DNA of 64,000 nucleotides from NCBI GenBank assembly GCA_016215315.1, contig JACRKG010000054.1, positions 1 to 64,000 on the forward strand, given 5' to 3'. Shown one piece after another: positions 3,642-64,000 of the stretch. Source of the stretch: Candidatus Woesearchaeota archaeon (GTDB taxonomy: Archaea; Nanobdellota; Nanobdellia; Woesearchaeales; ARS49). The notes below the pieces were generated by a model. The model saw only the letters and a list, made by a program, of their open reading frames with translations, did no database searches and had not been told where the DNA came from. A program made the translations under genes and the position numbers. How positions within the stretch are numbered: the stretch's first letter is position 1; each line of letters begins with the position of its first letter.

Positions 3642-3744
3642 TTCTATAAAGAAAGAGCAAATGGTATATAAATATTTCTAATCTACAAAAATTTCTAAAG
3701 AAATTTTTAACTATTGGGCTATTTTATGATACTGAATCAGTTTG

Positions 3745-3800
3745 AGTTCAGAGTTTGTAAACCAAAAACTACAAACCCCGAACCATGAACTACTACGGAG
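3745..3800. repeat. Heptamer-periodic hairpin repeat element, variant copy
   Basis: Sequence is TTTGAG TTCAGAG TTTGTAA ACC ... CTACAAA CCCCGAA CCATGAA CTAC. It lies between the divergent Lrp and MVP genes and abuts the GGAGG Shine-Dalgarno at 3797-3801. Confidence 0.6.
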
Positions 3801-3810
3801 GCTTGATAAA

Positions 3811-6602: not shown

Positions 6603-6867
6603 AATAAAAAGAGTCATAGATCCAAACAAAACACTAGAAGGAAGAATAAAGATAATTGGCGAAACAGAAGTTGCAAAAGCAATAGGCGCAGAACCAATGA
6701 CTCCCGAAGAATCTGCTGAATTCTTGAGAAAAACACAATACAATTACACAACTAAAGCAGATAATTATGCTAAGCCAACAACGGATAAAAATGAAAAACC
6801 AAATAACACAATCAAAGAATTCAATATGACTCCCTATCATCTTGGTGATCAACCAACGATTTTCTGA
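6592..6867 (+). CDS. hypothetical protein (91 aa)
   Basis: ORF overlapping the upstream stop by 11 nt (translational coupling). No motif. Confidence 0.35.
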   Translation: MTHEIKRVIDPNKTLEGRIKIIGETEVAKAIGAEPMTPEESAEFLRKTQYNYTTKADNYAKPTTDKNEKPNNTIKEFNMTPYHLGDQPTIF

Positions 6868-21180: not shown

Positions 21181-21855
21181 TTGAAAATAAACCAACCAAT
21201 AATTGTAATATTATCAATCGCAATTCTATTAATAATGCTAACCTTGTTCAACACAATAACAGGAAAACAAGTTCAAGAAGGAGAAGAATACAGAGGAAGA
21301 TGGTATCCGCCAGTTGAAAGTCCATTAGAAGGAATACCGGAAGGAACAAGATATGACTTACCTGAAGAATGCCCAATAAACGTCAACGAACTACCAGAAG
21401 GTGTAGGTGTTGGACCATCACTAGGACCAATAGATGTGTACATGAAAAAATCGCTAGAAGTACCAACAGAACAAGTAGTAGATCCTGATACTGATGGAGA
21501 TGGTCTAACAGGCAAAGAAGAATTAATTATAGGTACAGACCCGAATAATTACGATACAGACGGAGATTCCTGGTCTGATGGTGTGGAATATTTTTACGGA
21601 GGAGATCCTTTAGATAAAAAAATAGTTCCTCAAGATTCTGACAATGATGATTTACCAGATAAGCAAGAAAAATACTTAGGCACAGATCCAAACAATTATG
21701 ATACGGACAATGATGGATATTCTGATGCAAAAGAACTCAGAGAAGGAACAGACCCTTTAGATCCAGAAAGTCCAAAGTTCAAAGAGATTAGAGGACAACC
21801 TCTTCCGAGAGAATACCAAAAAGAATTTGATAACGGAGAAATACAAGCAGGATGA
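21181..21855 (+). CDS. membrane-anchored Ca2+-binding repeat protein (thrombospondin type-3-like D-x-D-x-D-G repeats)
   Basis: N-terminal TM anchor. Repeated [52 protein letters not shown] and DPLDPE motifs typical of TSP3/OmpA-like calcium-binding loops. Confidence 0.6.
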
Positions 21856-51500: not shown

Positions 51501-52105
51501 TAGCAAAATTACACAAACCAGAAAAACAACAAAATCCAATAGAAAAAGATGACTTAAGAAAAGGAGTTTTCTTAGATAATGTAAGATATTATGAAACAAC
51601 GAACAGAGCAAGAACAATGCAAGACTTCTCAGAAGTTTCAGATCAAGAATTTGAGCAATGGTATTTAGGAGAACTAACAGAATTATTAAAAGGATTTAAA
51701 GAAGTAAATGTAGAACATGACTTCCTCGAAACAGAAGTAGGAAAATTCAAACAAGATTACAAAAAATTAATTGAAACAATAAAACAAAACACAATAGAAA
51801 CTTTCAAAAATAAAGCAATCAAAGAAGGCAGACTAACTCTAGAACAACATGAAGAATTACTGAGAAAAGCACAACAATCACTAGAACAACATGAAGAATT
51901 ACTGAGAAAAGCACAACAATCACTAGAACAAATCCCACTACCAGAACATGAAGAACTCAGACCAGAAAAAGAACTACCTGCTGAGGTCCTTACACCTGCA
52001 GAAGTACTAATGAATGAATTAACAAAAGCAGAAAGCAAACCATCAATAGGATATCCCGATATTGAAGATATAGTGATACAAGAAGGAGTAGACGTATGCA
52101 GTTAA
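42551..52105 (+). CDS. giant secreted multi-enzyme protein (3184 aa): SF2 helicase-like ATPase core + PP2C/SpoIIE phosphatase + HD phosphohydrolase + Hanks-type Ser/Thr kinase
   Basis: Overlaps the upstream stop by 13 nt. Signal peptide. SF2 motifs: I ALGGGKTS, II DEAH (IQDEAHQG), III SGT, VI QGVKRAGRLAG, at about 43850-45500. PP2C: DATGHG and SDGVTD at about 47750-48480. HD: HDVGY ... H ... H ... D at about 48900-49350. Kinase: LGQGRFG, VIKIL, HGDTKPANV, DFGVAK at about 50800-51620. Confidence 0.8.
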   Translation: MRRINELKKVVILFFVLLISLQIIAAQACYPQQELQKVNERIEEIKTALEASRNAENARTAEHEAYRKTEKSFEDALNLVQDKYDAGEITPEQYSALKKVYENEVAKLRKARQLSILQLENVGSGAKISQEVQKLETNRRKQLSQVERKLSDLEYQLRSGGKSESEVSGTLATERQKLLQELSDQLGTSREQLNKEYNLNEIQKLEREINQLEIANNEIKSDTRFKQFFESIESVKETYRVNQNSEARMQAREDLAKKLRQDPELSNKIDGAEVKYRDIRQKAKELVADMNDKAAIKQKIKELAKKTAETPSDVQSWKDLSLLKKHLQNLELGNYNKLSSLRTELGAAQERLTKLPQDSAEYKAVETEYNRILDEISDISNESYLETGDKTLNDLLELVMRQWEYAKTSEQNQYTFNIRGKQLSEALLEFARNLKPGKASAIEFALGGGKTSTVAPVIAEISRLLTGRKALIELPDGKSTDAYNEIGRALTRQGRRVVVIRNTEKPLEILAQIKDADVVLVEFSTRGFIEAMARSTKISPTLREAYRELQLELVKDRTHIQDEAHQGTDIGNRYTLSGGEGEEIGKPLQNDAKLIGDTLVELGFVKKGFVDRSVLSTTAVFKGIFMQARGALFEETALKKISEKLAEKLKQEGFSQENLGEKINDYFKNKEKSKYSNEFSTEQQTRMKDLLEQINNFAEAMNKKPNSEYQPDKLGRKIGLAKNGNPAFNQQVSNPKLALAVEYVGSTYFDKPTNFGSVKTSGGTISSSWLANQYLLLKNSGTYLGMSGTMGKQLQSLVSALKIETKSNSQMNDLIFGRQNAQGEYEGGLLREATGTKTLNEALDISIKEIQKGKEGMFGKSKGQDANGNLVMVVPHEGTTAGEIISKLIKSGIKKTFIEKNGENFILKDSNGNKLRDINSKEAATLMNNGKDIILVMGEAATTGTDVKLNKNIPFVNFASSTNIADTIMQGVKRAGRLAGTNAAEHPDTYMFISGKEVKTGKLTIKEVKEVWDKNQNHESKNSLYDYVSAIVEFHYEKLFVDILYQEGLNPELARIAQELNEAFTSKGRTEQNLNTEHGVSSVEQTLTGKVKGNTEFFKKILNGEEIILEGEYTETGEPKKITSQDVRKFRDSLDSEFKKRLEDLSEEPTKKFEFGEGKESEKQPLLEETLDGLIGLLSQTIPKEALPEFAPGKLSDTFIVKELTENRHNSEQLLSQMEGELGSLTRQNDEVTSRINEYKNGVNGVVQELQNNDLITIRGGIQAGTYTVNKDEDENVWLLNAKGEIISAQTALMIDSALKTSDEIKITRSQQEILSQELQEANENLETVIQAQNEYNKLIAEKERLEQEIFNINNIEATNQAAEALYKIFKEKGLENLILNQADLLNYLSSIPQEERDAIINTGKDLTLNKNQIDKITEKFSKKISQGELLKRQNNEQITTDTTKYRDQIKKYTTQIKTINQELLNTLRLSLAGISQTQLPTLAGTETTSAYELIDLAIKELEKTNLEELVSKLETTEGFELTQEQIILLTELQNQIQTNTKNLELTLSILNELLTQDITSEQREQLSKTYNKAAQSLKQFRELESQTSATRTQINLDLGIEALTQEELESKIKEKQSEIETAQNSIKEFSQLAQEAKTKGDEGAVKAYEDAIKDRQQEITKLEKEIAQLKTKLEISAEISTTKEIPPATELPAIIEPISSREQIPLPEHEELKPETGSAERARKAREQLTQKIDQIIKGMPVPVYAFNQPLESAWGGDLIRISSPKSGVVRVLHLDATGHGSQGAKHKTGLALAIQRLETGATGELKQDLEMYLRALQEEINTIKEEFKEQGLSAEELKDYDPLGTFAVYDYNTETGEVIYSTGGEERNFFQYTEGKVGAALKSRGEKLGEAGIKTDTTNMKPGDVFVIVSDGVTDMFKDGAKRLQKALGKDKFDQLGIKDLKQIIEENAGKSEGEIKQAIMSEYNRIKGFLAPVITELKEQEKTKSLSQLEADQKEAETLRETINVIEGLFDDVSIVVMKAKTAEVSALNIEDSFFTDAVDESIAKGEIPDALPGVRDEDDKDNLRSVIASGEVSVKKLYKELHSRISTDPKLSNEEKQKRLAALNVVFRTTVTWLVAQDEADLELPYVAHDAKHSRTTSTDMSKIVRASPELRVELEKQYGPYYAELVTLLGFLHDVGYATLEEGEHKSIHAPRGGEMVENFLRSQIAASFGLSEKAVSDFVDAITYHGSDKKGKDYKAASLTENPLLLLMRLSDNLDITENRLRAWQRDQFFMRAVYKLWDDEEIKGYEAKIAGLRKELSRTEVKKDIDEHNEQIDALIEKINERVKKINEESVNVITGVRNLLQKLHDERSTEWYQQADENTKIILSKSALMKGLGEILKDRKLEKNQLGTILTLLKKYALNDAKLSDSLSMFGNIIEAIPKMNYESFPHFIGALVIKGVNYQVKNGEMIVSVDIDPEAERLGEQLLGKENVLVGEYQVARTVLAVSSLFFEEGIDEIKGPTERGIKIEIKKIKESKEKIKELKEIEEIQEGIGATKIIMPETEKPILEEEIGIPAEITLEERITERIETDCEGGGSVHCSFNYEKTGVSIDLLNQHVMNEKNKQEIIKAATTVVEWAAGVYNFKKEKPEEAWIKEVTFEGTVVKIVINVEQKNAESIKETLQARLASEKLWDALVRTPNLVVYTNIATREEIIKNIEFQLEKAVLEEKVEEKISRITIPKEEVHNLESILEKIGVTLPELVDRKKPVGYQIKGATKLGQGRFGIAWLVNLDGKQQVIKILDIEDEGALSSLSSETLEGVLANYDFVQEEYLITRQVKGDSRFIQTNGIVRGEQELIDLGNKFISESEELSKLFEDKNALREKLKNREISAKDVSKQQKQAEFFKKKGEYLINLAKQGSGFIATISDYYEGEDFDAMRKSQKTISRKQFSELKRFLTQALNDLHNGKTLDRLLITHGDTKPANVMLLKNGKFLILDFGVAKLHKPEKQQNPIEKDDLRKGVFLDNVRYYETTNRARTMQDFSEVSDQEFEQWYLGELTELLKGFKEVNVEHDFLETEVGKFKQDYKKLIETIKQNTIETFKNKAIKEGRLTLEQHEELLRKAQQSLEQHEELLRKAQQSLEQIPLPEHEELRPEKELPAEVLTPAEVLMNELTKAESKPSIGYPDIEDIVIQEGVDVCS

Positions 52106-55100
52106 AAAAGATAATAATAACAATACTCGCAATTTTGATAATATTACAAGTAGTTGTAGCTGCAAGAACGGCTTGTGAAAGATACACTGATGACGAATTT
52201 TTTGTAAAACAAAAATTAGAAGAAAAAGGACTGCCTACAACAAAAGCGCTAATAAATCTAGTCCAAACAGCCGTAAGCTTTAGAGTTGACGAACAAAGAA
52301 ATACTCCTTGGTTAGAAAGAATAAAAAAATATTTCGGGAAGTTAGTAACAAAACAAGAAAAAACACTTGATGATGTAATATTAGAAACAGACCAAAAATT
52401 AAGAATCGGCGACGATTCATTTATTAAAGCAAGAACAAAATTCAAACAATCACTTTCAAAACTAGCACCAGAAAAACCAAGAACATTCTCAGAACACCAA
52501 TTTACAGATTTAGTATTAATAGAAGAAGTTAATAAAGAAGGAAAAACAATTCCTGTAGAAAAAAAAGTTGCAAACTTCCAAAAACCGGGAGTGTATAAAG
52601 CAAAAACTGAAGATAAAACATACATAATAAAAGTATACGAATCAGAAACACAAGCTGCACAAGACAAAAAAAGTTTAACAGTACTAAAACAAATAGAAGG
52701 AATTCCGCTAATTAACGATTTCGTGAGAGACCAAGATAATGCAAAAATAGGACTAGTAATAGAAGATCTTCCTTCAATTTCAGAATCAGAAACACAAGAC
52801 ATTAAAGGAGAATTCTTTGAAAAATTAGAAAAATTATTTTTAGACTTATCACTAAAAAACAAATACACCCCAAAAAACATTTTGGGAATACCAATCAAAG
52901 TCAAAAACGGAAGACCATATCTTAACCCATTCGATCTAAACAAAGGAGACTTAAATGAAGAATTTTTACAAAAAAGGCTTGACTCACTAAAAAAAGCAAT
53001 CATTCGTTTTGGAACACACAAATTAAGCAATGAAGGAACATTTTATTTGAACAATAGAATCAGTGTGGAAGGAATAAAAGAAATACCCGCAGAAAACATA
53101 CAAGTACTAGACAAGATAGGAGAAGGAGCTCACGGAATAGTATTCAAAGTTCTGATAGAAGAAAAACTTCACGTAATTAAGTTATTCAAGCAAGATCCTT
53201 ACTTAACAGAAACAGAATTAATCAACAATATTCTTGAAGAATATGACAAAGCCAAAATAATCCAAGGACTAGACTTAGGGCCAGAAATTGCAGGATTAAC
53301 AATAATAAACGGAATTCCTGCACTAGTAATTGAGTATGTTGATTCAATAGACCCACAAACTGCATCTTACGATGAACTAAAAGAAATAGTTAATGAAGAA
53401 ACACTAAAAGAATACCAGGACGCGATTCCTGCAAAACTAAATAAAGAAGGATACTTCATGACTGATTACCAAGGAGGAATTCTAAAAGAAGACCAATTTA
53501 TTAATGGCAAATTAAGAAAAAAAGGAGAAGTACTAATTTTAGATGCAGCAAGTTTAGAAAAAATAATTCCACAAGTAACAACAGAAGAAGATCTAGAATT
53601 AATGAAAGAATCAGCCAACATAGAAAATTTAATGAGCACAAAAGAAAAAACAAAGAATATTAATGGCATATTAGAAACTTTTGTTAAGGAATCTAAAGAA
53701 AAAGTAGCTTCGGTAAAAAACAACGAAAAGTCCTTAGACTCTTTGCTTGAATTACGAGGAACTTATTCAGAATTACCTGAAGAAGGAATAGACTCTCTTG
53801 AAAGAATGCTAGGTGATGGAATTAAAAAACCTTTAAGCCAATTAAAACCCGGGAAAATATTAAGAATTTCAAGTGCATCAACAAGCATTGATCTAAAAAA
53901 CTTAAATGATAGAAGCGGAGGTCATGCAAAAGCAGACTTAGTAAAAAACTACGGCGCATTTAGACCACTAAATGAATTCTTAAAAACGGTATTAGGATAC
54001 ACAAGAACTGGTGCTTTCCAAAAAACACTAATGGCAGTAAAATCAGAAGAAACAGAAACCACACGAGGAAGACCGTATAGAATCTATGAAGGATATGGCT
54101 ACAAAGTTACCGTTTATGAAGCCAAAGAAGATGGAGAATTGATAAACAAATTAAACGAAAAATTTGAAGAAATAAAAAAAAGAAAAGTAACAACGGACGG
54201 AGGAGAAATTGAAGTGGGGGACGTTCTAAGCGCAGTACTAAAAGAATATTTTGTAAAAATAGAAGGAAAAGTTCCTGAAAATGTTCTAGATCAAATAAGC
54301 ATGGACGTTTACAAAACTTTAACGGTGGCCAGACATTACCAAACATTAAAAAATGAAAAAGTGGGTTCTTACACTGATGAAGAAATAGATAATTACGTAA
54401 TAGAAAAACATGAAGAATATAAAACAGCAGATGAAACAAGAAAGAAAGAAATAGAGGATGAATTAGCAGAATTATTTGATAGTTTCCCACTAACAGAAGA
54501 CGGGAGCATAATGTCTGTAGAACAAACAAAAGAAGAATTAAATAAATTAATCAAACAAATAGAAGACGAAACAACATTATTAAAAATCGCAGAAGGAGAA
54601 AAAAGAAGTGAATTACTCATTAGCTTATCAAGAGAAATAATAAAACTAACCGAGCTTGAAAGAACGATACGAAGAAAATCAACTGGACACCCAAAATTCC
54701 CAACAAAAGCAACAGGAAAAGCATTTGCAGCAACAATAGACAATGACGCAGAATATATAATAAGATATTCTCCTGTTCTTGGAGGAGTAACGGGAATTAA
54801 AGGATACTATGCATCTACAGATGTTCACGATGTTGGAAAAGAAAACACAAATCAAAACAAAATAGAAATAATTGAAAACTTATTAAGCAAACCACAAATA
54901 AATAAAGAAGATATTCTCAAAACAAGAAGAATGATTGGTAAAGAAAGAGACAAACAAATCGGAGGAGTTTATCTGCTATTAATAGGACATCCCGAAGTTC
55001 TAACCAAAGAATTTTTCACAGATAACAGCAAATTCACTTCAGAAATGCTCAAAAAATTAAATAATTTCCTAAATTCAAATCAATGGAACTCAAGAGAAAT

Positions 55101-55899
55101 AAATGACCTCAAACCAGCACTTTCAGAAACAATTAGCTTATTAAATAAATACCAAGAAGGAGAAGACGTTTTAGACGATTTAAACTCACAAAGAAGAATA
55201 GTTGCTGAAAAATTAAGTCTATTATTCACCCACTTAATGCGCGCAGTAGCTACAGGAGGAGACGAAGGCTTAGAAATACAACAAGAAAACGAATACACTG
55301 TACTAAGAAACTTTTTAATAGGAATGTTAACTAACAAAAAAGTAATACCTGGAACAGGAATGGTAAAACTAGGCCTTGAAGGCGTAGAAGCAAACAACTT
55401 AGATAGTGCTAAAACAAGAAGCAAAGGAGCATCACTAGTTACTAAAATAATAAAAGTATTCGAAGAAGACTACGCAGAAAAATACGGCTACACGTACGGA
55501 GAAAGACTGGGAAAAGATAACGAAAAACTTTATGAAGAAGTAAGTGACAAAGTAATTAATTATTTCACGAGCGAAGTGGATTATTTAGTTAAACAAATAG
55601 AATCAGCAACAAGCATTACAGACTTAAACAAAAACGATCAAAAGAGACTGCAAAAATTATTACCTCAGCTCAATAATTTAGACGTCTGGGGTTATGCGCT
55701 AGGAATAAAAATCAATTCATTAATAGATTTGAGAAATAAACTAAGCCAAGCAATAGAAAGAAAAGGATGGAGTTCAAACTTAGGCTTAGATACAGACCAA
55801 TTAGAAGAAGCAGTAATAAGTGAAGATGAAGATTTGTTCCCCGAACTAATTGATGCAAGAGGGATTGAGATTTCTGGCGCAGAAGAAATATGCAAATAA
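52096..55899 (+). CDS. giant secreted protein (1267 aa) with kinase-like (possibly pseudokinase) domain
   Basis: Overlaps the upstream stop by 10 nt. Signal peptide. Glycine loop plus beta3 Lys: IGEGAHGIVFKV and VIKLF at about 53100-53190. A second N-lobe-like segment KPGVYKAKTEDKTYIIKVYE. No clear HRD/DFG was seen. Confidence 0.65.
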   Translation: MQLKKIIITILAILIILQVVVAARTACERYTDDEFFVKQKLEEKGLPTTKALINLVQTAVSFRVDEQRNTPWLERIKKYFGKLVTKQEKTLDDVILETDQKLRIGDDSFIKARTKFKQSLSKLAPEKPRTFSEHQFTDLVLIEEVNKEGKTIPVEKKVANFQKPGVYKAKTEDKTYIIKVYESETQAAQDKKSLTVLKQIEGIPLINDFVRDQDNAKIGLVIEDLPSISESETQDIKGEFFEKLEKLFLDLSLKNKYTPKNILGIPIKVKNGRPYLNPFDLNKGDLNEEFLQKRLDSLKKAIIRFGTHKLSNEGTFYLNNRISVEGIKEIPAENIQVLDKIGEGAHGIVFKVLIEEKLHVIKLFKQDPYLTETELINNILEEYDKAKIIQGLDLGPEIAGLTIINGIPALVIEYVDSIDPQTASYDELKEIVNEETLKEYQDAIPAKLNKEGYFMTDYQGGILKEDQFINGKLRKKGEVLILDAASLEKIIPQVTTEEDLELMKESANIENLMSTKEKTKNINGILETFVKESKEKVASVKNNEKSLDSLLELRGTYSELPEEGIDSLERMLGDGIKKPLSQLKPGKILRISSASTSIDLKNLNDRSGGHAKADLVKNYGAFRPLNEFLKTVLGYTRTGAFQKTLMAVKSEETETTRGRPYRIYEGYGYKVTVYEAKEDGELINKLNEKFEEIKKRKVTTDGGEIEVGDVLSAVLKEYFVKIEGKVPENVLDQISMDVYKTLTVARHYQTLKNEKVGSYTDEEIDNYVIEKHEEYKTADETRKKEIEDELAELFDSFPLTEDGSIMSVEQTKEELNKLIKQIEDETTLLKIAEGEKRSELLISLSREIIKLTELERTIRRKSTGHPKFPTKATGKAFAATIDNDAEYIIRYSPVLGGVTGIKGYYASTDVHDVGKENTNQNKIEIIENLLSKPQINKEDILKTRRMIGKERDKQIGGVYLLLIGHPEVLTKEFFTDNSKFTSEMLKKLNNFLNSNQWNSREINDLKPALSETISLLNKYQEGEDVLDDLNSQRRIVAEKLSLLFTHLMRAVATGGDEGLEIQQENEYTVLRNFLIGMLTNKKVIPGTGMVKLGLEGVEANNLDSAKTRSKGASLVTKIIKVFEEDYAEKYGYTYGERLGKDNEKLYEEVSDKVINYFTSEVDYLVKQIESATSITDLNKNDQKRLQKLLPQLNNLDVWGYALGIKINSLIDLRNKLSQAIERKGWSSNLGLDTDQLEEAVISEDEDLFPELIDARGIEISGAEEICK

Positions 55900-57042
55900 T
55901 CAGTTAACAAAAAAGGGAACATCTGCAAACTTAAGAAAAAAAGGATTGCCAGAATTCTTTGCAGAACTAAGCTCATTCAAATAACACGTTTCTGTTTTTC
56001 CAAGCATTTCTCTTCTCGATTGATTTTTTAATCCGTACTTTTTATACCATTCACTTGTTTGCAAGTATTTATCATAATCAACATCTAAAACTTTTTTTTC
56101 TTTTTCATTCAATCCTTTCAAAAAGTCTTCATACTTTCTTTCTCTGCAAACATCCTGTTCTGAATTTTTCCATAATGGTCCTTTCCAAATCTTACTGTAA
56201 ACACCCTGCAAAGCAAACCTTAAAGCATCATTAAATAAATCTCTCTCAAAATTAAAAGTTCTTATAGAATTATAAAAAAAAGGCGCTTCGATATCTTGAT
56301 TGTTGTAAGTTTTAAATTTTCTTCTTTTTTCATTCTTTAAAAGAATTTCTGCAATATTTTGTAAGTGAAAGAAAATTTGTAATTCCTCCTCAAAACTGTC
56401 GCTATCAATACTTGCCAAATTGACAAAATATTCGCTCAAAGATTTAAGAGAAGGATTTGATCCTGTGATAAACGGAATAACTCTTTGCTCAAAACAATCA
56501 GCAACACTACTAAATTCTCCATCATTCTCCATAACAAGCTCTAAAACAAAATCCCCTGCATTATCTCTTGCATTTTCTAAAAAAACTTTTCTTATTCTGT
56601 AAACGCTAAAATTTCTAGACAAATCCCCAACATTAATTCCTGCCGCAGCACAAGCAGAATTCAACTTAGCACTCATACCAACCCCCGTTTCTTTAATGAC
56701 TAATTTTCTTTTATCATAAAGCTTAAGCATTCTGTGAAGCAAAAAATGAGAAGCTCTACTAATTTCTTTTGCTGGTGTTACGTCATCCAAATTTTTTGCT
56801 AAAAGCATTAAAGGAAGATAAACTCCCTCATAACCCATGCCCACTTCACTACAATCACCGAAAACTGCTGAAGGAGCTATAACAAACTCTTTTTTACTAT
56901 TAGAATCAAAACCAAAATTTCTAACTTCCAACTGCTTAGTTAAAACCTCAAGAGTGGGTTTATCACAATCAATACAGTAACTAGTATTATTAACCGCAAA
57001 CTGTTCCATAAAAGGTTTACGAAGTAAACCTTTAAAAAACAA
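55900..57042 (-). CDS. hypothetical protein (380 aa), unassigned; faint GHMP-kinase-like Gly/Ser-rich segment
   Basis: Complete ORF convergent with the giant operon. The segment IKETGVGMSAKLNSACAAAGINVGD weakly resembles a GHMP P-loop. Assignment not secure. Confidence 0.35.
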   Translation of the reverse strand: MFFKGLLRKPFMEQFAVNNTSYCIDCDKPTLEVLTKQLEVRNFGFDSNSKKEFVIAPSAVFGDCSEVGMGYEGVYLPLMLLAKNLDDVTPAKEISRASHFLLHRMLKLYDKRKLVIKETGVGMSAKLNSACAAAGINVGDLSRNFSVYRIRKVFLENARDNAGDFVLELVMENDGEFSSVADCFEQRVIPFITGSNPSLKSLSEYFVNLASIDSDSFEEELQIFFHLQNIAEILLKNEKRRKFKTYNNQDIEAPFFYNSIRTFNFERDLFNDALRFALQGVYSKIWKGPLWKNSEQDVCRERKYEDFLKGLNEKEKKVLDVDYDKYLQTSEWYKKYGLKNQSRREMLGKTETCYLNELSSAKNSGNPFFLKFADVPFFVN

Positions 57043-57255
57043 ATTGGCGAATACTAATAATATAAGAAATATTTTCTATTTGTTCTGACACAAAATCAAG
57101 ATGTATTTAAATAAGATCGATATTACTAAAGTCGTTCTTAGTTATTTTGAATATCTTTCGGTTTTTAATCCGCACATTTATTGATTAAATTCGGCTTATG
57201 ATACGATAGTTGCTACTTCTAGTTTGCAGTTTGAAGTGAATATACCAATTCTGTT

Positions 57256-57289
57256 CATTACTAATGCACACTATTGTTCATTAGTAATG
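57256..57289. promoter_or_regulatory. twin 11-bp palindromes CATTA-N-TAATG (candidate operator) upstream of the fourth giant gene
   Basis: CATTACTAATG at 57256-57266 and CATTAGTAATG at 57279-57289, 23 bp centre to centre, 120-155 nt upstream of the 57411 start. Confidence 0.4.
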
Positions 57290-57410
57290 AAAACTATTAT
57301 TTTTACTATGTGGAAACAATTCTTCTTTTCCGACGAAAAAAACAGGAAGATTTATAAAGAAAAACATTACAAAACACTTGAAAAATAGAATAAAAAACGA
57401 GGGGTTATTA

Positions 57411-60400
57411 TTGAGTAAAAAGCTACTGTTAATACTAGTAGTACTAGTTCTAGTTCCAACACTAATTCATGCACAAGGATTCAGTAAGGGATACTGTGTA
57501 GTGAATCCAGATTTTAGTGATTTAAGAAATACTTTAAGCGATGAAAACATCAAAAATGCTTTAGCTAAAGCATCATTGGAAAAACAAACCACCATAGAAA
57601 TAACCGACGCAAGAGTGATACATCAAAGAACTTTAGCAGTACAAAGCATTCTTAACCAAGAAAAAACTCCAAACATGCTTTTTGAGGATTTAGAAACAGA
57701 TCAAAAACTCAAATTGGGTATTAAAAGTTTGATAGAACAAATCTCGAATTATCCTCTTGAAAATTCTGTTTGGAAAACTATTGGAGAAAGACTCTATGAA
57801 TTAAACCAAAGAGATTCTAACACCATTGAAAAATTCAAGTCTTGGATGAGTGAACTAAAAAGCAAAATAGAAGGTTTCTGGCCTTTTGGAAAAGACGCAG
57901 CAAGAACACAACTAAGTAATTTAGAAAAAATATTGGAAGCTTACGAAAAAAAAGAAAGAATTGAAGACTTAAAAAATGGTGTTTTCAAAGAAAAAGAACT
58001 AAAAGGAAAAATCAATCAAGCAGTATACAAAGAATACAATTTTGAAAAAGCAAGAAGAATAATATCAGAATACAAAGGAAAAGTGAAAGATGAATTTCTT
58101 GAAGAAATGCTTAAAACTTTAGATAAAGTAGAAGTGGGATTCTTTGATTTACCAAGAGCTTTGTTATTCTTTGGTGAGCAACAAAAAGATTTTAACAGCG
58201 TCATTCTAGAAGGTGAAGGAATGACTGTTGGTCGTTTAGCAAACAACAATTTAGTATTTAGCGATAATTTTGTTTCAGGAAAACACGCGAGATTGTTTTT
58301 AAAAGATGGCAAAACACACATTACTGATTTAGGATCTACCAACGGAGTTTATGTAAAGAAAACAGGAACACAAGAATTTGAAAGAATAAATTCAAACACG
58401 CCAATAGAACTAAACGATGGCGACGAAGTAAGCATTACGCCTTTAAAAAATGGAATTATTTTCAAAATAAACACATTTCATCTCAAATTAAACGAACTAC
58501 TAAAACAAAACGATATTGAAGGAGCAAAAAAATTAATCAATGATGAACTAGAAAAAGGACAAATAAACACGGAAAGCCTATCCAGATTCTTTGCAAAAAT
58601 AACAGGAAAAGAAAAAGCATTACCGGAAGAAGAAATAAAACCTGAAAAGAGGATTACTCCTGTAGTAATACAAAAAGTTCCTGCATCGCCTTTAGATCAT
58701 GACAATAAATGGGCTTCTTTAGTTGGAATAATACCAGGACTAACTGAAGAATTAGAGCGAGACTTTAAGTTTGGAGGAATGATAAACGAGTGGGGTAAAG
58801 GAGAGTACAAACACGAAAAGTCAACAGAAGGCGGAGGAACTATGGAGCTCACCCCCGCAAGTGAAGAAGAATACAAAACATTCCAAGAATGGAAAAAATA
58901 CAATTATCTGCCCGAACTCTCTCTTTCTGAAGCTAGAGAAGAATTAAGAAAACTAAAAGCGCTATTAAGTAAGCACGAGATAACTCTGGAATTCACAGAA
59001 AATCTTGAAGATTTTGAAACTAATGAAAAATCAGTAATTCACTTATCATCAAAAATAAAAAGAATAAGACAATTACTAGAATTACTTCCAGACTCAATTT
59101 TAGACTTAGGCACACTAGAAAGAATAACTCTTGGAGGGTATGAAGGAGTTGGAGGCGCAAAAGGAAGCGCATTCAATTCACAATACAAAGAACTTCAAAT
59201 ACTACAATTCGCATTATCTGGACCAGAAAGAAACTTAGACGCATTAGTATTACACGAATCGGGACATGCTTTGGCAGTTTCTTTAACACAAAAAGAACGT
59301 GATGAATTAAGACAATTACGAGAAAAAATATCTCAATCAGATTTTTTCACTTTTGATTATGGTCTAGGAAAAGAAGAAAGAGCTGGAAGAATGAGTGATT
59401 CATTAAACGAATTCCTTGCAGAATCATTCATGCACTACACATTACAAGGAGAACAATTAAGAAAACATATTGAGAATTTAGAAAAAACAAAACCGAGTGC
59501 AGGAAAAGCATACAGCGAATTATATAATTTCTTAAAACAAAAGTTCGATGGAAAAGAATATGGGGTCAAAAAAGTAGCAGTACCACGGATAAAAACAAAA
59601 GCAGACTGCCAACCAACAAGAAGCGCAGGATGCGTTTTATCAAATGTTTTAAATCCAACAAAAACAGCAGGAGAGCTCGAAAATTTTGTTAAAGAATTCG
59701 GTATTGAAGAAGGAAAAACAACTCCTCTTGAAGTAGAACCAAAAATAATAATAACCCCCGAAACACAAAACTTACCACAAGAAGAACAAATAGGAACAAT
59801 AGAATTCACTGCAAATGTTCCGAGTGAGAAAGCAGATGAGTTCGAAATATTTGTAATTAAAAAAATTTCTGAGGAAAAAATTCTAATTCCTCCAGAGCAA
59901 AGAACTGAAGTAAAAGAATTTGAATTTGTCAAAGCCGGAGCAGTTTTGGAACCTGTTGAAGGAGTTATTGCATTAGACGCGGGTAACAAACAAGTGCCTG
60001 GGGTAATAGACCATCATCATATTATTGGGAGTGAAAGAGCAGCAACTGGAACAGTACTGGATAATCCTCAACTAATAATTGATTGGCACAACAAAAAGCC
60101 AATCACTAAATTAACTTCTCACGAAAACCCCGACTTTGATTCAATAACATCCACTTACTTAGCAAAATACTTCTTACAACACGGAGAATTTCCAGAAGGA
60201 GCAGAAGTATTGGCTGCATATGTTGACTTAGTTGATTTCGGAAGATTGCCTAAAGCACAAAATATGGAAAACACTCCTTATGGAGTCATGACTGGCATAC
60301 TATTTGCTTATAGAGGATATTTTGATCCAGCACAGAAAAAATTTATACCAAACAACGATAAAAGACTAGAAAAAGGAATGGAATTCATAGACTTCTTACT

Positions 60401-63400
60401 GAAAAGAATCCAAGAATTAAAACTAATCAATTTAGCAGACGAATATCAAGCATCAAAAATATTTGAAAACACAGAATTAAATGATGACATAAAAAAATCT
60501 AAAGATTACATAAAACAAGACCAAGAAAGCTTCAAACAAGACTTTGAACGTGCCAGAAAAGAAAAAATAATTCTTAAAAAAGAAACTGGGCAAACAATAA
60601 CTACTAATTTTGTATTTTTAGAAAACCCCGAAAGCGCGTTATTCAAAGAATACTTTAGAGGCTTAGGATACTCTGTGATGAATATTTATTTCTCAAAACA
60701 AGATCCAACAAAGCCAGATTCACCAAACATAAGAAGATTTGTGATAAGCACAGACCCTGAAACAAAACTACAACTAAAAGGATTGGGAGAAATAATAGAC
60801 AAAGCAGAACAAAAAGCAAGAGAAGAATTAATTAAAGAATTAGAAAAAATAAAGTTTTTCGAAGAAAAACTTGAGAAAGCAAAAGAAGCCTTAGGCAGCG
60901 CAGTAGAAACTTCTTTTAACTCATTAATTAAAGATAAAACATTAACAGAACAAGAAAAAATCAATTTACTAATACAATTAATAGCAAGAGCTGGAGAACC
61001 AAGACCGGGCTACACAAATGCAGATCCATGGTATGACGGAAGAGGCCACAGTTACACAATAATAGACACACCAAGAACAGGCACAGCAATAAGCAAAGAA
61101 CAAATGGATCAAATACTTAGCGAATACAGTAACAAAAATAAAGAAGAAAAACCAGAAGTTCCAGTACCAGTAAACTGCCAAGGAGGACATAGCGTTGATT
61201 GCAGTTTAGACCTGAGTTCTTTCAAAATTGACATATCAAAATTAGTTGAAGACAAAGTCTTCAGAGACGCAATTGAAATTTTTGCTTCCAGCAAAGATTA
61301 CCCCTTAGAAGAACCTTACAAAACACACTTAAGAGAATTAAATGCAGAAGGAAACAACTTAGTAGTTATACTAAACGTTCCTTCAGAACTAAAAGATAAA
61401 GTCGCTAGCGACTTTAAAGAAGCAATAAGGTTAGGACTATTTGATCCATTCCTCAAACCAGAAATAAAATCAGAAATAAATTTCAAAGGATACATAGAAT
61501 TAATGAAAAGGTACAGAAACTTATTTTCAGATGATTACTTGTACACTACAAGACTAAAAAACTTAAAAGAAAAAGGAGAAACCACACAATTGCAAATTTG
61601 GCAAAATTTGCAGGGAAAAAGAAAACTAGACGAATTACAAAAATTAAGAACGCGATTCCTAAAATATTTACTAAAAGAAGAAAATGAAAATTCTAACAAA
61701 ATAGCAGAATTATTCTATGTTGCATTAGGATATGGCGTGAATGTTGATCCTGAACTAGCAGAACTATTCTTACAATCACTAAAAGATGCAGGCGTTAGCC
61801 TGCAACAAAAACAATTAATACAAAAACTACTAAATCACAGACTAAGAGAAGAAAGAGAATATTATCAACTACCTCCAGAACAAAAATTAATTCTAATAGA
61901 ACTAAGAAATCAAGTACAAGAGTTAGAAACACAAAAAGAAACACCATCAACATTATCTCCTGAAGAATACATCTTAAGCATAGGACTAGAACAATTGCTT
62001 GAACCTAAAATAGTTGATGTTTATCATGAACGCTTCCGTAAAATATTTTTTGACGATGAAGAATACAACCAATTACTAGGTGAAATCAAAAATTTAGTTG
62101 AGAAAAAAGAACAACTAGACATATCATGGTCACAACTGCTACCGCTCATAGAAAATATTCTAGCAGGCAGAGGAAACACTTTAACAATAGTTGATCAAAA
62201 AACAAAAGAACAAAGAGAACTAACATCACAAGACTTAACAGATGAAGAAACACTAAAAGCAATATCAGAAGGAAAAATAAGAATCAACGGAAAAATATTT
62301 GATCAATACGTTGCAGATGTAAGAGAAAAACTCAGCAAAGAAGAAGCTGACAAAATAAATCAAGTAGGGAAAACGGAGTTCTCTCAAGAACAAATAAGAT
62401 TCAGACTAGAAATAAGAAGAAGACTATACGAATTAAAAAACAAACTCGACCTGATAAGAACATTATCTGAATTCATAGATAATAATTCTCCGCACAGATT
62501 ATTATACAATATTGAAGAAGAAAGATATTCTCAAATCGAAAGAAAATATGAAGAACTAAAAAACAGACTATTGACAAAAGCATTCGAGTTCCTATTACAC
62601 GAATCTTTTGATAGAAAATTACTAAAACTAAACAATTTAGAACTCAAAAGTTCTTTAATCAATTGGTTCAAAGATGAAATCAAACAAACATACAAAGAAT
62701 TTTATGACGACAAAGAAAAACAAGAATTCACCAACAGAATAACCGACCAAGAAATACAAACAATAAACAGAATAGAACAAGTAAGACAAAAAGGATATTA
62801 CGAAACAACAGAACAAGCCTTAGGTGATAAAACAGCAAGACTGCAATTCGGAAAAATTAGCTTGCCAATACCTTTGATTAGATTGTCTGTAGCTAGAGAA
62901 ACACTAATTCAACACAGAGTAGAAACTGACTCATTCATTGAGGACCAAAACGAAGTTTTAGCAAGACTCGATTCACTAAGAACACTTCTAGGAATAGAAA
63001 GAAAAGCAGACTGCGAAGGAGTGGCAAGCGCTTATTGTTACAGAAGAACAACGAAAGCACTAACAACAGAACAACTTCTAACTGCAAAAGAAAAAGCAAA
63101 AGAAGGCATGGACGAATTAGTGAGCGAAGGAAAATTATCCCAAGATGACAAAGAAGCAAGCGAATGGGTTGACGAACCAGAACAATACGGAACACTACTA
63201 AAACTAGTATTTAATGTCAAGAAGAATAAAGCAAAAGTAGTTCAAGAAAAAGAAGAAATATCTCCTGAGCAAAAATTCAAAAATCCGACAAGCAAAGCAG
63301 TCTTTAAAGAGCTTCAAGACTATATAGAAAAATTATTTGCAGACAAGAAAGTAATAACTGTTAATGGAGAAGAATTATCCAAAGAAACAGTGTTATCTAG

Positions 63401-64000
63401 AACAATAAAAGCATTGCTCGATCTAGAATCTGAACCTTTACCAACTAAAGTAGAAAATTACAATGTCAATTCAATCCCTAAACTGCCAGGTCTAAGGAAT
63501 TTGTACATTGAAGCGAGCTTAGAAGTTAGCAAAGAATCCTTGCGTCAAGAACTAGAAAAACTCAATGAACGAATAGAAAAACAACAAGGTCTCCTTGGCC
63601 AAATGCAAGAATTTCACGGAGGCTTCTTCAAATCCATCCTTTATTTCTTCACAGGAAAACCTCAAGAACTTGTTAAAGCAACTAAGAGTCTAGAAGATCT
63701 AAGAAATTTCAGAAAAGTGCAGGAAGCAGGATTGAGCGCATTTGAAAAAGAACTGGAGAAATTAAAAGCAGTGAGTGCAGAGAAACAGCAGGTTTCTCCA
63801 TGCAGTTCCTGCACAACAACAGTTGCAGGCTGGGCTGTTAAGAGTAGTAATAAAGATTCAGCTTTCAAGATTAGTTTTGAAAAAAGAAAAGGCTGGATTT
63901 ATTTAGGAATTGCTCATTATGATCAAGTATTTGATAAAGAAAATGAAGTTAGGTTAAAGAGTTATATTTTTGCCAGCGGAGCACCGCCTGAAGAAGTAGA
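57411..64000 (+). CDS. giant secreted protein, partial (>2190 aa, runs off window): FHA domain + HExxH zincin-like motif + coiled-coil
   Basis: No + strand stop from 57291 to the window end; only short minus-strand ORFs overlap it. TTG start at 57411 (or 57378). Signal peptide SKKLLLILVVLVLVPTLIHA. FHA signature GMTVGRLANNNLVFSDNFVSGKHARLFLKDGKTHITDLGSTNGVYVK at about 58190-58480. LHESGHALAV (HExxH) at 59262-59279 with a downstream Glu. Confidence 0.7.
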   Translation, partial: MSKKLLLILVVLVLVPTLIHAQGFSKGYCVVNPDFSDLRNTLSDENIKNALAKASLEKQTTIEITDARVIHQRTLAVQSILNQEKTPNMLFEDLETDQKLKLGIKSLIEQISNYPLENSVWKTIGERLYELNQRDSNTIEKFKSWMSELKSKIEGFWPFGKDAARTQLSNLEKILEAYEKKERIEDLKNGVFKEKELKGKINQAVYKEYNFEKARRIISEYKGKVKDEFLEEMLKTLDKVEVGFFDLPRALLFFGEQQKDFNSVILEGEGMTVGRLANNNLVFSDNFVSGKHARLFLKDGKTHITDLGSTNGVYVKKTGTQEFERINSNTPIELNDGDEVSITPLKNGIIFKINTFHLKLNELLKQNDIEGAKKLINDELEKGQINTESLSRFFAKITGKEKALPEEEIKPEKRITPVVIQKVPASPLDHDNKWASLVGIIPGLTEELERDFKFGGMINEWGKGEYKHEKSTEGGGTMELTPASEEEYKTFQEWKKYNYLPELSLSEAREELRKLKALLSKHEITLEFTENLEDFETNEKSVIHLSSKIKRIRQLLELLPDSILDLGTLERITLGGYEGVGGAKGSAFNSQYKELQILQFALSGPERNLDALVLHESGHALAVSLTQKERDELRQLREKISQSDFFTFDYGLGKEERAGRMSDSLNEFLAESFMHYTLQGEQLRKHIENLEKTKPSAGKAYSELYNFLKQKFDGKEYGVKKVAVPRIKTKADCQPTRSAGCVLSNVLNPTKTAGELENFVKEFGIEEGKTTPLEVEPKIIITPETQNLPQEEQIGTIEFTANVPSEKADEFEIFVIKKISEEKILIPPEQRTEVKEFEFVKAGAVLEPVEGVIALDAGNKQVPGVIDHHHIIGSERAATGTVLDNPQLIIDWHNKKPITKLTSHENPDFDSITSTYLAKYFLQHGEFPEGAEVLAAYVDLVDFGRLPKAQNMENTPYGVMTGILFAYRGYFDPAQKKFIPNNDKRLEKGMEFIDFLLKRIQELKLINLADEYQASKIFENTELNDDIKKSKDYIKQDQESFKQDFERARKEKIILKKETGQTITTNFVFLENPESALFKEYFRGLGYSVMNIYFSKQDPTKPDSPNIRRFVISTDPETKLQLKGLGEIIDKAEQKAREELIKELEKIKFFEEKLEKAKEALGSAVETSFNSLIKDKTLTEQEKINLLIQLIARAGEPRPGYTNADPWYDGRGHSYTIIDTPRTGTAISKEQMDQILSEYSNKNKEEKPEVPVPVNCQGGHSVDCSLDLSSFKIDISKLVEDKVFRDAIEIFASSKDYPLEEPYKTHLRELNAEGNNLVVILNVPSELKDKVASDFKEAIRLGLFDPFLKPEIKSEINFKGYIELMKRYRNLFSDDYLYTTRLKNLKEKGETTQLQIWQNLQGKRKLDELQKLRTRFLKYLLKEENENSNKIAELFYVALGYGVNVDPELAELFLQSLKDAGVSLQQKQLIQKLLNHRLREEREYYQLPPEQKLILIELRNQVQELETQKETPSTLSPEEYILSIGLEQLLEPKIVDVYHERFRKIFFDDEEYNQLLGEIKNLVEKKEQLDISWSQLLPLIENILAGRGNTLTIVDQKTKEQRELTSQDLTDEETLKAISEGKIRINGKIFDQYVADVREKLSKEEADKINQVGKTEFSQEQIRFRLEIRRRLYELKNKLDLIRTLSEFIDNNSPHRLLYNIEEERYSQIERKYEELKNRLLTKAFEFLLHESFDRKLLKLNNLELKSSLINWFKDEIKQTYKEFYDDKEKQEFTNRITDQEIQTINRIEQVRQKGYYETTEQALGDKTARLQFGKISLPIPLIRLSVARETLIQHRVETDSFIEDQNEVLARLDSLRTLLGIERKADCEGVASAYCYRRTTKALTTEQLLTAKEKAKEGMDELVSEGKLSQDDKEASEWVDEPEQYGTLLKLVFNVKKNKAKVVQEKEEISPEQKFKNPTSKAVFKELQDYIEKLFADKKVITVNGEELSKETVLSRTIKALLDLESEPLPTKVENYNVNSIPKLPGLRNLYIEASLEVSKESLRQELEKLNERIEKQQGLLGQMQEFHGGFFKSILYFFTGKPQELVKATKSLEDLRNFRKVQEAGLSAFEKELEKLKAVSAEKQQVSPCSSCTTTVAGWAVKSSNKDSAFKISFEKRKGWIYLGIAHYDQVFDKENEVRLKSYIFASGAPPEEV

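Follow-up and report, generated by a model that had tools for sequence, protein, structure and literature searches.

The gene analysed here, G4, was read from position 57411 to 64000 (+), the end of the window (the whole stretch of DNA that was analysed, 64,000 nucleotides), as 2,196 codons without a stop. Its start codon is TTG (57411-57413), with a GAGGGG Shine-Dalgarno sequence (57399-57404) at a spacing of six nucleotides. The full-length protein is NCBI MBI5066510.1 (P0001 in our numbering; Candidatus Woesearchaeota, 6,862 aa), which has the identical start. The window holds about one third of it (N-terminal), and the 4,666 residues downstream of the window end include two HExGH domains, a kinase-like domain and HEAT repeats, in line with an earlier sequence-only reading that the protein continues past the window. 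Archaeal markers are present within the window, and a Logan assembly, made independently, matches window positions 51930-60476 at 100% identity. The archaeal source, the 6,862-aa length, the DHH-like module and the cysteine-loop junction architecture are absent from the earlier reading. About 115-160 nt 5' of the start, inside the divergent intergenic region 57010-57410, lies a 23-nt tandem repeat that is a candidate operator, judged by its sequence. Features are listed in the table.

Table. Features of G4 and its upstream region within the window.
Feature	Residues	Position	Strand	Basis
Tandem 23-nt repeat, CATTA(C/G)TAATG palindrome per copy		57247..57298	.	repeat search and sequence
Shine-Dalgarno GAGGGG and TTG start		57399..57413	+	sequence; start matches MBI5066510.1
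Predicted Sec-type signal peptide: n-region MSKK, h-region L5-I19, c-region HA|QG	1-21	57411..57473	+	
Cys29, just after signal peptide	29	57495..57497	+	sole unpaired Cys in whole G4
N-terminal region	30-255	57498..58175	+	no Pfam/NCBIfam match
FHA domain, predicted phosphothreonine-peptide reader	262-345	58194..58445	+	PF00498, NF049868, 5a8i, motif residues
Lethal-factor/MtfA/PPEP-like gluzincin domain (putative)	415-731	58653..59603	+	new sequence family
HESGH: two zinc-binding His and catalytic Glu, by analogy	615-619	59253..59267	+	conservation, model helix 192-210
NEFLAE: Glu helix	666-671	59406..59423	+	conservation, model
Junction module 1: C733-x7-C741 loop and ~90-aa domain		59607..59900	+	
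DHH-superfamily-like phosphoesterase module (predicted)	836-1250	59916..61160	+	homologues, alignment A3, PDB profile search
Junction module 2: C1256-x7-C1264 loop (NCQGGHSVDCS) and ~80-aa domain		61176..61445	+	BLASTP, alignment
Module, function undefined	1346-1860	61446..62990	+	no family match
Junction module 3: C1868-x7-C1876 loop and ~75-aa domain		63012..63260	+	BLASTP, alignment
Segment between junction module 3 and SPCSSC module	1951-2127	63261..63791	+	no Pfam match
SPCSSC (C-x2-C) module, start only, cut by window end		63792..64000	+	sequence

G4 closes a run of five consecutive giants (G0-G4) bearing signal peptides. Both G0 and G1 are rich in Cys and adhesin-like, with Cys-rich repeats in G0 and Kazal in G1, and TSP3 repeats were found in the ORF at 21181-21855. 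These extracellular-type domains in the cluster partners (Kazal, TSP3, Cys-rich repeats) count toward export of G4. G2 carries SpoIIE/PP2C, HD and Pkinase domains behind its signal peptide, and G3 is kinase-like, also with a signal peptide, in agreement with the earlier placing of a kinase giant, predicted to be exported, next to G4. Two relatives were compared. P0003, predicted to be exported, unites HD, kinase, PP2C, zincin and FHA within a single chain, and P0002 combines Pkinase-FHA-Pkinase with the DHH-like module. Between G4 and P0002 this module reaches 89% identity, compared with 27-37% for the other modules they share, which suggests that modules are exchangeable between relatives.

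The signal peptide was called by inspection and a hydropathy scan. It reads MSKK-LLLILVVLVLVPTLI-HA|QG, with a positive n-region, a hydrophobic h-region (L5-I19, where 10-15 residues are expected) and small -3/-1 residues at the predicted cleavage site, and looks like a Sec signal peptide, as the sequence-only reading had proposed. Residues 5-23 are the sole 19-aa stretch in all 6,862 aa with a Kyte-Doolittle mean >=1.6 and clear TM strength. The same N-terminal design was found in G0-G3, P0002 and P0003; candidate cleavage sites with small -3/-1 residues in the giants are HA|QG, AA|QA and AA|RT. The Lys-Lys n-region and the near-neutral flank past the helix predict an N-in/C-out topology. Twenty-two of the 23 Cys of G4 lie <=9 residues from a partner (random mean 1.3; matched in 0 of 200,000 shuffles), a pattern of short-range pairing as is typical where proteins are adapted to an oxidising compartment. 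A lone early Cys, as at position 29 of G4, was also seen in G2 (C29), G3 (C27), P0002 (C24) and P0003 (C47, its only Cys). From the export-type N-terminus and the cysteine architecture we infer that G4 is exported. The window showed no translocation device.

The FHA domain proposed earlier was borne out by PF00498, which scored 55.7 bits (gathering cut-off 20.7; E=6.7e-15) over aa 272-342 and covered profile positions 2-66 of 67, and by NF049868 FhaB (E=3.8e-15). The phosphothreonine-binding residues are all kept (VGR 273-275, SGKH 289-292, STNG 309-312) and align with those of the closest solved relative in the PDB, archaeal ArnA (5a8i). The domain is probably a phosphothreonine reader, ligand binding being predicted from these residues. 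FHA and zincin adjoin in two proteins only, G4 and P0003, with the order swapped in P0003; the adjacency is absent from bacterial giants carrying the zincin. The N-terminal region before the FHA domain weakly resembles that of G3 (G3 84-110 against G4 80-108, 48% identity, E=0.9).

The HExxH...E arrangement, earlier described as gluzincin-like, has its motif residues conserved: H615, E616, G618 and H619 are invariant in 14/14 homologous sequences, as are E667 and E671, which lie 48-52 residues past H619. The chance expectation for HExxH in 2,196 aa is ~0.04. In the structure model the motif occupies helix 192-210, preceded by beta-strand 180-183, and the invariant Glu residues fall in helix 251-264. 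A coiled-coil location of HExxH, which would have spoken against the assignment, was not seen; the motif belongs to the active-site helix of a zincin fold, lethal-factor/MtfA-like and modelled with confidence, and the invariant Glu helix lies downstream. As modelled, aa 415-731 is a putative zinc protease of the anthrax-lethal-factor/MtfA/Pro-Pro-endopeptidase fold, with HExGH and an EFxAE Glu helix. By analogy with lethal factor, whose EFFAE motif we take to be the counterpart of NEFLAE, the third zinc ligand is probably E667. A catalytic, transition-state Tyr belongs to lethal factor (Tyr728, upstream of the Glu helix) and to PPEP; the zincin family of G4 has no conserved Tyr 7 residues before E667 and a near-invariant Arg 10 upstream (R243, A1 numbering).

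Solved relatives of the zincin include PPEP-2 and PPEP-3. These are secreted endopeptidases, and their substrates are surface proteins. G4 had no match to the ATLF (PF07737) or Peptidase_M90 HMMs at E<=10, nor the zincin to Pfam peptidase models, and among 14 family members one reached ATLF at a non-significant E=0.072 and none hit Peptidase_M90. The zincin was therefore filed as a shared fold but a separate sequence family. Since only 143-187 of 321 residues align, an additional N-terminal subdomain, some 110-130 aa long, is present in the zincin. The family occurs embedded in archaeal and bacterial giants or as standalone ~300-aa proteins. Full-length G4 has three HExGH domains, two of them beyond the window; the relationship of copies 2 and 3 with copy 1 is weak (hhalign probability 28%), and neither adjoins a loop.

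Residues 836-1250 form a predicted DHH-like phosphoesterase with IDHHH at 866, HENPDFD at 904 and DPWYDGRG at 1205, a ~70-aa coiled-coil insertion and hundreds of homologues. Pfam DHH (PF01368) scored below threshold in G4 (16.8 vs 28.1 bits; homologues 15.8-25 bits). A PDB profile search gave the DHH family member 9r7o (E=0.0025, the match spanning motif I only). H-x-x-P-D-x-D, the DHH tripeptide and further Asp residues are invariant in the family (alignment A3), with the DHH 38 residues before motif I (aa 904-910), the reverse of the canonical order. Elsewhere the family is fused to TPR and a nucleotide cyclase, or to TCAD9/APH-like domains. For the zincin as for the DHH-like module, most standalone homologues are without signal peptides, which makes the modules cytoplasmic in origin; a cytoplasmic role would fit too.

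The enzyme modules of G4 are separated by C-x7-C junction modules, three of them in the window. Junction modules 2 and 3 match G2 2566-2671 (BLASTP E=0.002) and G2 2576-2665 (BLASTP E=0.019), respectively. Across G1, G2, G4 and P0002 at least nine lie at module borders. The P0002 gene stops exactly behind a C-x7-C loop, and the next ORF opens with junction-domain sequence. The junction loops (6-7 residues) have no conserved cleavage-site motif in the alignment. Residues 1346-1860 had no match in Pfam, NCBIfam, PDB or PADLOC. Full G4 has the SPCSSC module again at aa 3511 and 4144.

The signal peptides and the kinase and PP2C domains of the neighbours, the kinase-like module of G4 and the fusion in P0003 indicate that the modules belong together. 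DPANN archaea, to which the Woesearchaeota belong, are mostly host-dependent symbionts. Our reading, with a probability of about 0.45, is that G4 is a Sec-exported modular protein and that the giants work at or inside the host cell, where they form an array of signalling enzymes of cytoplasmic type. Co-exported kinases would set phosphothreonine marks, the FHA domain would dock the neighbouring zincin onto these marks, and the protease would cut the phospho-marked targets; alternatively, the zincin would process the giants themselves at junctions. The DHH-like module would hydrolyse a nucleotide or phosphoester. The phospho-relay that was suggested earlier, extracytoplasmic or within a target cell, may operate in this way. 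An exported phospho-signalling kit is plausible, though not proven, with export, catalysis and target being what we infer, and G4 is probably part of a kit for manipulating its presumed target, the host. Kinases, PP2C and FHA require ATP and a cytoplasm, which counts against the host array, as do the failure to find a translocation device in the window, the lack of a Pfam peptidase match for the zincin, the standalone homologues that mostly lack signal peptides and the limitation of FHA-zincin adjacency to two proteins. No immunity gene for the G4 modules was identified.

The same export-type N-terminus and cysteine architecture are consistent with a surface-tethered scavenging array at the cell exterior or contact zone, digesting peptides and nucleotides that the archaeon would be unable to make, with FHA and kinase-like modules as binding or scaffold domains and not a phospho-relay. 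Zincin, DHH-like and HD (G2, P0003) modules are hydrolases, and the PPEP-2/PPEP-3 relatives are secreted and act on surface substrates. Omnitrophota giants have been proposed to bear extracellular enzyme arrays (bioRxiv 10.1101/2023.11.21.568195). Scavenging is nevertheless rather unlikely, as kinase, PP2C and FHA are conserved and co-linked in relatives, which is hard to explain without ATP, and the FHA domain retains all its phosphothreonine-binding residues. Self-processing of the giant and its neighbours by zincins at or near the Cys-loop junctions, setting single enzyme modules free as is done by the MARTX cysteine protease domain or, in polymorphic toxins, by releasing peptidases, would suit the number of HExGH domains in full G4, the junction modules at module borders and the split at the loop of P0002, and the first zincin terminates ~2 residues ahead of the C733-x7-C741 loop. 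The loops, however, share no cleavage-site motif, the second and third HExGH copies are weakly related to the first and away from loops, and standalone and bacterial members of the zincin family are without such junctions; we regard it as unlikely. Quite improbable is a cytoplasmic membrane-tethered scaffold with an uncleaved N-terminal anchor, serving a kinase/PP2C/FHA circuit of the cell itself. All enzyme modules are of cytoplasmic type, with standalone homologues mostly lacking signal peptides, and ArnA, the top solved FHA relative, is a cytoplasmic archaeal regulator, but the predicted topology is N-in/C-out, the -3/-1 site resembles a cleavage site, nearly all cysteines are in short local pairs, and the matching N-terminus is found on Cys-rich G0 and Kazal-bearing G1.

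The zincin has its fold in common with lethal factor and PPEP (MEROPS M34, ATLF PF07737) and MtfA (M90), and differs in the added N-terminal subdomain and in having Gly as the invariant fourth residue of the motif (HExGH). The DHH-like module shares motif I, which matches DHH profiles, with the DHH superfamily (NrnA, GdpP/Pde, family II pyrophosphatase; PF01368), whereas a C-terminal signature, DPWYDGR..H.YTIID.P..GT, replaces DHHA1/GGGH; the family is unnamed. MARTX and polymorphic toxins (PMC3482391) resemble the putatively exported G4 in having one long exported chain with serial unrelated enzyme modules, and in modules that can be swapped among relatives. G4 is archaeal, with an N-terminal Sec-type signal, and carries signalling enzymes, not recognised toxins. 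RTX/glycine-rich repeats, CPD, Rhs, HINT or another known trafficking or release domain were not found by Pfam in the 6,862 aa; of the features of MARTX (RTX repeats, CPD, type I secretion signal), Pfam gave none in G4.

Among other ultra-small or predatory prokaryotes, giant exported proteins of Nanohaloarchaeota (SPEARE; PMC10266531) and Omnitrophota (Archaeovorins; bioRxiv 10.1101/2023.11.21.568195) have been implicated in host contact. Both are like G4 in exceeding 5,000 aa, being led by a signal peptide or TM segment and having host-dependent producers. SPEARE-type giants carry Ig/fibronectin-like arrays and a VirB4/TraG ATPase (PMC10266531), for which there was no Pfam match in G4. The domains of Archaeovorins include glycosyl transferases, methylases and NUDIX (bioRxiv 10.1101/2023.11.21.568195); like G4, these giants combine HEAT repeats with numerous enzyme domains of cytoplasmic type. 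As described, neither has FHA, kinase, PP2C, lethal-factor-like zincin or DHH-like modules or Cys-loop junctions. Ser/Thr kinase-PP2C-FHA triads of archaea and bacteria (for instance Sulfolobus ArnA/ArnC/PP2A, mycobacterial GarA/OdhI) share the three domain types with the giants, and the G4 FHA domain aligns best with ArnA and GarA/OdhI. The triads are small separate proteins of the cytoplasm, whereas in the giants these domains are led by a signal peptide and joined to a putative protease and predicted phosphoesterases.

The reading frame of G4, the last of five consecutive giant proteins (G0-G4) running from 22025 to beyond 64000 and all opening with a signal-peptide-like N-terminus, continued from 57411 for 2,196 codons without a stop up to the window end. 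HMMER, run exhaustively against 1.84 billion representatives, retrieved the complete protein as P0001 (NCBI MBI5066510.1; 6,862 aa, 100% identity), carried on a 142.5-kb contig; the protein extends past the window, as the sequence-only reading had proposed. Public annotation of this record names the FHA domain alone. An independent Logan assembly (SRR12113407) was identical to window positions 51930-60476; the window end had no exact DNA match in the genome and metagenome contig sets searched. Word-index homology searches with the whole 2,196 aa and with the zincin alignment were empty despite the homologues found by HMMER, which was taken as a limit of the index on K/E-rich sequence. Archaeal markers in the window (GC content ~33%) were Pelota (eRF1 domains 1-3), archaeal-type PheRS alpha and beta, TrmB and Lrp/AsnC regulators. 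No family match was obtained for G4 residues 30-255 and 1346-1860 in Pfam, NCBIfam, PDB or PADLOC, and PADLOC gave no matches. Beyond the window G4 carries HEAT repeats. The heptapeptide WFWQKWF occurs in two exact copies in P0001, also outside the window (aa 4296-4302 and 6814-6820), the second ~45 residues from the C-terminus.

Coordinates of the features are collected in the table. The tandem repeat lies within a 400-bp divergent intergenic region and may bind a regulator. Neither PheRS-alpha nor the 369-aa minus-strand ORF in its longer, 380-aa form with a TTG start was on record. This ORF was rejected as a conserved partner: the one that follows P0003 (a relative on locus L005) is similarly placed but not homologous to the one that follows G3.

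Features of the G4 locus, its neighbours and related loci.
Feature	Position	Strand	Remarks
TTG start of G4	window 57411-57413	+	GAGGGG six nt upstream
Candidate regulator binding site	window 57247-57298		upstream of G4; two tandem 23-nt copies (TGTTCATTAC/GTAATG...), palindrome in each
ORF without family match, 369 aa	window 55900-57009	-	stop-to-stop; between G3 and the G4 promoter region
Junction modules in G4	window 59607-59900, 61176-61445, 63012-63260		
Junction module in G2	aa 2577-2670 (window ~50279-50560)		
Junction module in G1	aa 1247-1255		
Terminal cysteines, G1	C5212/5214; window 26919-42563		
Terminal cysteines, G2 and G3	G2 C29 + C3183/3184, G3 C27 + C1266/1267; window 42551-55899		
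Terminal cysteine, G4	C29 only; window 57495-57497		
Terminal-cysteine sites, locus L005	L005 2541-20008		
Bacterial ORFs >2,400 aa	L009 3-10118, L010 3-7331, L014 1-8127		HExGH zincin + RelA/SpoT nucleotide pyrophosphokinase domain

The signal peptide, FHA domain and HExxH motif noticed by the sequence-only reading were all confirmed. The N-terminus of G4 (MSKK-LLLILVVLVLVPTLI-HA|QG) holds the sole strongly hydrophobic 19-mer in 6,862 aa (2.36 against 1.63 for the next best in a hydropathy scan), an export-type leader, and the same scan found a single N-terminal hydrophobic segment in each of G0-G3, in P0003 and in P0002, a relative on locus L006. A lipobox at the N-terminal cysteine of the giants was rejected (distance from h-region to Cys 2 to ~17 residues, positions -3 to -1 not lipobox-like), as was a type IV pilin-like (class III) signal peptide, there being no G/A/S before the h-region. 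The FHA domain was matched by PF00498 at aa 272-342 with 55.7 bits (cut-off 20.7; E=6.7e-15) and by NCBIfam FhaB (E=3.8e-15); its GR, SxxH and TNG residues are kept, and among solved structures the best relative was ArnA, an FHA protein of Sulfolobus.

Behind the FHA domain, HESGH (aa 615-619) and NEFLAE (aa 666-671) lie in a domain of aa 415-731, here called the zincin; the chance expectation of HExxH in 2,196 aa is ~0.04. Some homologues are standalone proteins (about 280-400 aa); the others are modules in the giants P0003 (3,335 aa, 46% identity), P0074 (3,634 aa) and P0077 (6,510 aa, two copies), and none has a Pfam family. H615, E616, G618, H619, E667 and E671 were invariant in a 14-sequence alignment. 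AlphaFold2 with this alignment gave a model with pLDDT 86.6 and pTM 0.86, the only usable one (single-sequence prediction of aa 431-750 reached pLDDT 37), in which HExGH falls in helix 192-210 with a strand just upstream and both glutamates fall in helix 251-264. In one comparison with solved structures other gluzincins followed the leading matches, and Foldseek likewise placed anthrax lethal factor and PPEP-3 on top (probability 0.98-0.99). Because the modelled fold is thus that of a zincin, the motif does not sit in a bare coiled coil, the contrary case that the sequence-only reading had raised, and the HExxH...E gluzincin-like arrangement stands. Single-sequence PDB searches with the zincin and DHH-like segments gave no significant match, and its sequence does not place the zincin in Pfam ATLF or M90; likened by fold and motif to lethal factor, PPEP and MtfA, it is filed as a new sequence family with the M34/M90 fold. 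At the sensitivity of the search used, it is rare (5 loci in 185,579 GTDB species genomes, 6 in JGI metagenomes). Several of these loci lie within bacterial ORFs >2,400 aa in which a RelA/SpoT domain occurs as well. Those on loci L009, L010 and L014 (Deltaproteobacteria, 'STL-UBA1' and others) form another uncharacterised set of giant multi-enzyme proteins. Two more HExGH domains were found in G4 beyond the window (aa 2805 and 4457), 35% identical to each other and weakly related to the first copy.

Residues ~836-1250 of G4 belong to a large unnamed, DHH-like family, which accounts for most matches listed among the 749 obtained at E<1e-3 with HMMER and is marked by the invariant motifs LDVGN..PG.IDHH, TH..PD.D, ID.G and DPWYDGR..H.YTIID.P..GT. 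Pfam DHH matched the module below threshold, at motif I; the family profile reached solved DHH phosphoesterases at E=0.0025, and NCBIfam gave weak matches to Mn-dependent pyrophosphatase. As the DxD motif comes after the invariant DHH, the module is possibly permuted relative to DHH phosphoesterases. Elsewhere the family is fused to TPR and adenylate/guanylate cyclase, or to TCAD9 ('ternary complex associated domain 9')/APH-like kinase domains (P0005, P0006, P0029, P0034, P0019); these fusions hint at a nucleotide-related activity and a role in nucleotide signalling or conflict systems. The module is 89% identical between G4 aa 822-1249 (window 59874-61157) and P0002 aa 1592-2019, against 27-37% for the other modules common to both, a disparity that, judged on sequence, implies a recent exchange of the module between these Woesearchaeota giants.

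G4 contains 23 cysteines, C29 and 11 short-range pairs (three C-x7-C, two C-x6-C, one C-x4-C and five C-x2-C). A partner within <=9 residues was found for 22 of the 23, against a random mean of 1.3, and none of 200,000 shuffles reached 22. The C-x6/7-C loop, with consensus (D/K)-C-x-x-G-S-x-x-C, opens a module of ~80-100 aa that matches no known families. Copies of this module sit at domain borders in G4 (five of them) and likewise in G2, G1 and P0002. BLASTP among the giants showed no paralogy with SEG masking; unmasked, these junction modules alone appeared. The P0002 gene ends directly behind a CGPGSFAC loop, and junction-domain sequence opens the ORF that follows (L006 11571-11623); the gene is either truly divided at a module border or interrupted in assembly or sequencing. 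SPCxxC was rejected as a deaminase zinc motif, having no H/C-A-E motif upstream.

Cysteines at the termini follow a pattern of their own. Every giant shows at least one of two features, a lone Cys just behind the signal peptide and a Cys 1-3 residues from the C-terminus. G2 and G3 have one after the signal peptide and one 1-2 residues from the C-terminus and are otherwise Cys-free, apart from the loop in G2. On L005, an independent relative from an unrelated sample, a Cys-rich G1-like protein ends ...GVCAS and the only Cys of P0003 is C47, just past the signal peptide. The genes of these two overlap by 13 nt (L005 10001-10013), as do those of G1 and G2 (window 42551-42563), and this equality suggests translational coupling; G2 and G3 overlap by 10 nt (window 52096-52105). 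The cysteine architecture fits proteins shaped for oxidising, extracytoplasmic life, and the terminal pattern, recurring on L005, suggests the hypothesis that giants are linked tail to head by disulfides, for which the pairs would be G1 C5212-G2 C29, G2 C3183-G3 C27 and G3 C1266-G4 C29. An extension of this, which we consider unlikely, is an AB-toxin-like assembly of >16,000 residues in which G1, Cys-rich and adhesin-like, would serve for binding, G2, G3 and G4, which have almost no Cys, would hang from it as enzyme carriers, and reduction in the host cytoplasm would free kinases, PP2C, the FHA-guided zincin and phosphoesterases. If true, it would give a DPANN archaeon a new route for delivering eukaryote-like signalling effectors into another archaeon. 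The terminal-cysteine pattern is directly testable.

Of the neighbouring giants, G0 is Cys-rich and so is G1 in its N-terminal half. A Kazal domain was found in G1, and immediately upstream of the two a TSP3-repeat protein is encoded. Besides an HD-like region, G2 holds SpoIIE/PP2C (37.8 bits) and Pkinase (35.7 bits); G3 has a kinase-type glycine loop, and G4 a kinase-like domain around aa 4800-4900, beyond the window. P0003 is led by a signal peptide and joins HD, Pkinase, PP2C_2, zincin and FHA in a single chain. In it FHA (2861-2957) comes directly after the zincin (2537-2828), the same pair as in G4 in reversed order. P0002, from Woesearchaeota with a Crystal Geyser-type MAG accession, has Pkinase-FHA-Pkinase besides the DHH-like module. 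The window also encodes a 583-aa protein (3742-5493, +) with strong matches to major vault protein (MVP) domains, MVP_shoulder (E=3e-28) and Vault, Vault_3 and Vault_4 repeats; to our knowledge, archaea seldom have homologues of MVP.

Kinase, PP2C, FHA and zincin thus co-occur repeatedly, with the set of catalytic and ligand-binding residues intact. The sequence-only reading had taken the exported FHA giant beside a kinase giant as support for a phospho-relay outside the cytoplasm or inside a target cell; this is partly supported, the co-occurrence being borne out and the relay step being conjectural. The giants would be exported. Since kinases and phosphatases depend on a cytoplasm, the most likely place of action would be at or in a host cell, where the FHA domain would direct the neighbouring zincin to phosphothreonine-marked proteins. 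An extracellular scavenging array would share the export leaders and the cysteine architecture; set beside the cytoplasm that kinases need, it appears improbable, if the least so of the alternatives. That the zincins are self-processing proteases cutting at the junctions would fit the modules at domain borders; standalone members of the family have no such junctions, and we doubt this reading slightly more. A cytoplasmic, membrane-tethered scaffold would suit the cytoplasmic type of the enzyme modules; weighed against the export-type N-terminus and the short-range pairing of the cysteines, it is the least probable.

DPANN archaea cannot live alone, and their hold on and control of hosts are largely unexplained so far. 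Here ~54 kb, a large share of a small genome, is given to five giants with export-type N-termini, which together carry adhesin-like Cys-rich parts, kinases, a PP2C phosphatase, an FHA reader, lethal-factor-like zinc proteases and phosphoesterases. Should the five reach a host cell, they would form the first candidate effector array of an archaeon to combine phospho-signalling with a lethal-factor-like protease. The analysis defines three groups absent from Pfam so far: the ~300-aa HExGH...EFxAE gluzincins, standalone or in bacterial and archaeal giants; the DHH-like family with its DPWYDGR signature; and the C-x6/7-C junction module.

No description of the Woesearchaeota giants was found in the literature searched, and the cysteine-junction and terminal-cysteine architecture is undescribed. 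In overall design G4 is similar to MARTX and polymorphic toxins (PMC3482391), and also to exported giants from Nanohaloarchaeota (PMC10266531) and Omnitrophota (bioRxiv 10.1101/2023.11.21.568195); the defining domains of each are absent from it. Exported giant multi-enzyme proteins are a known kind; the lethal-factor-like gluzincin family is new.
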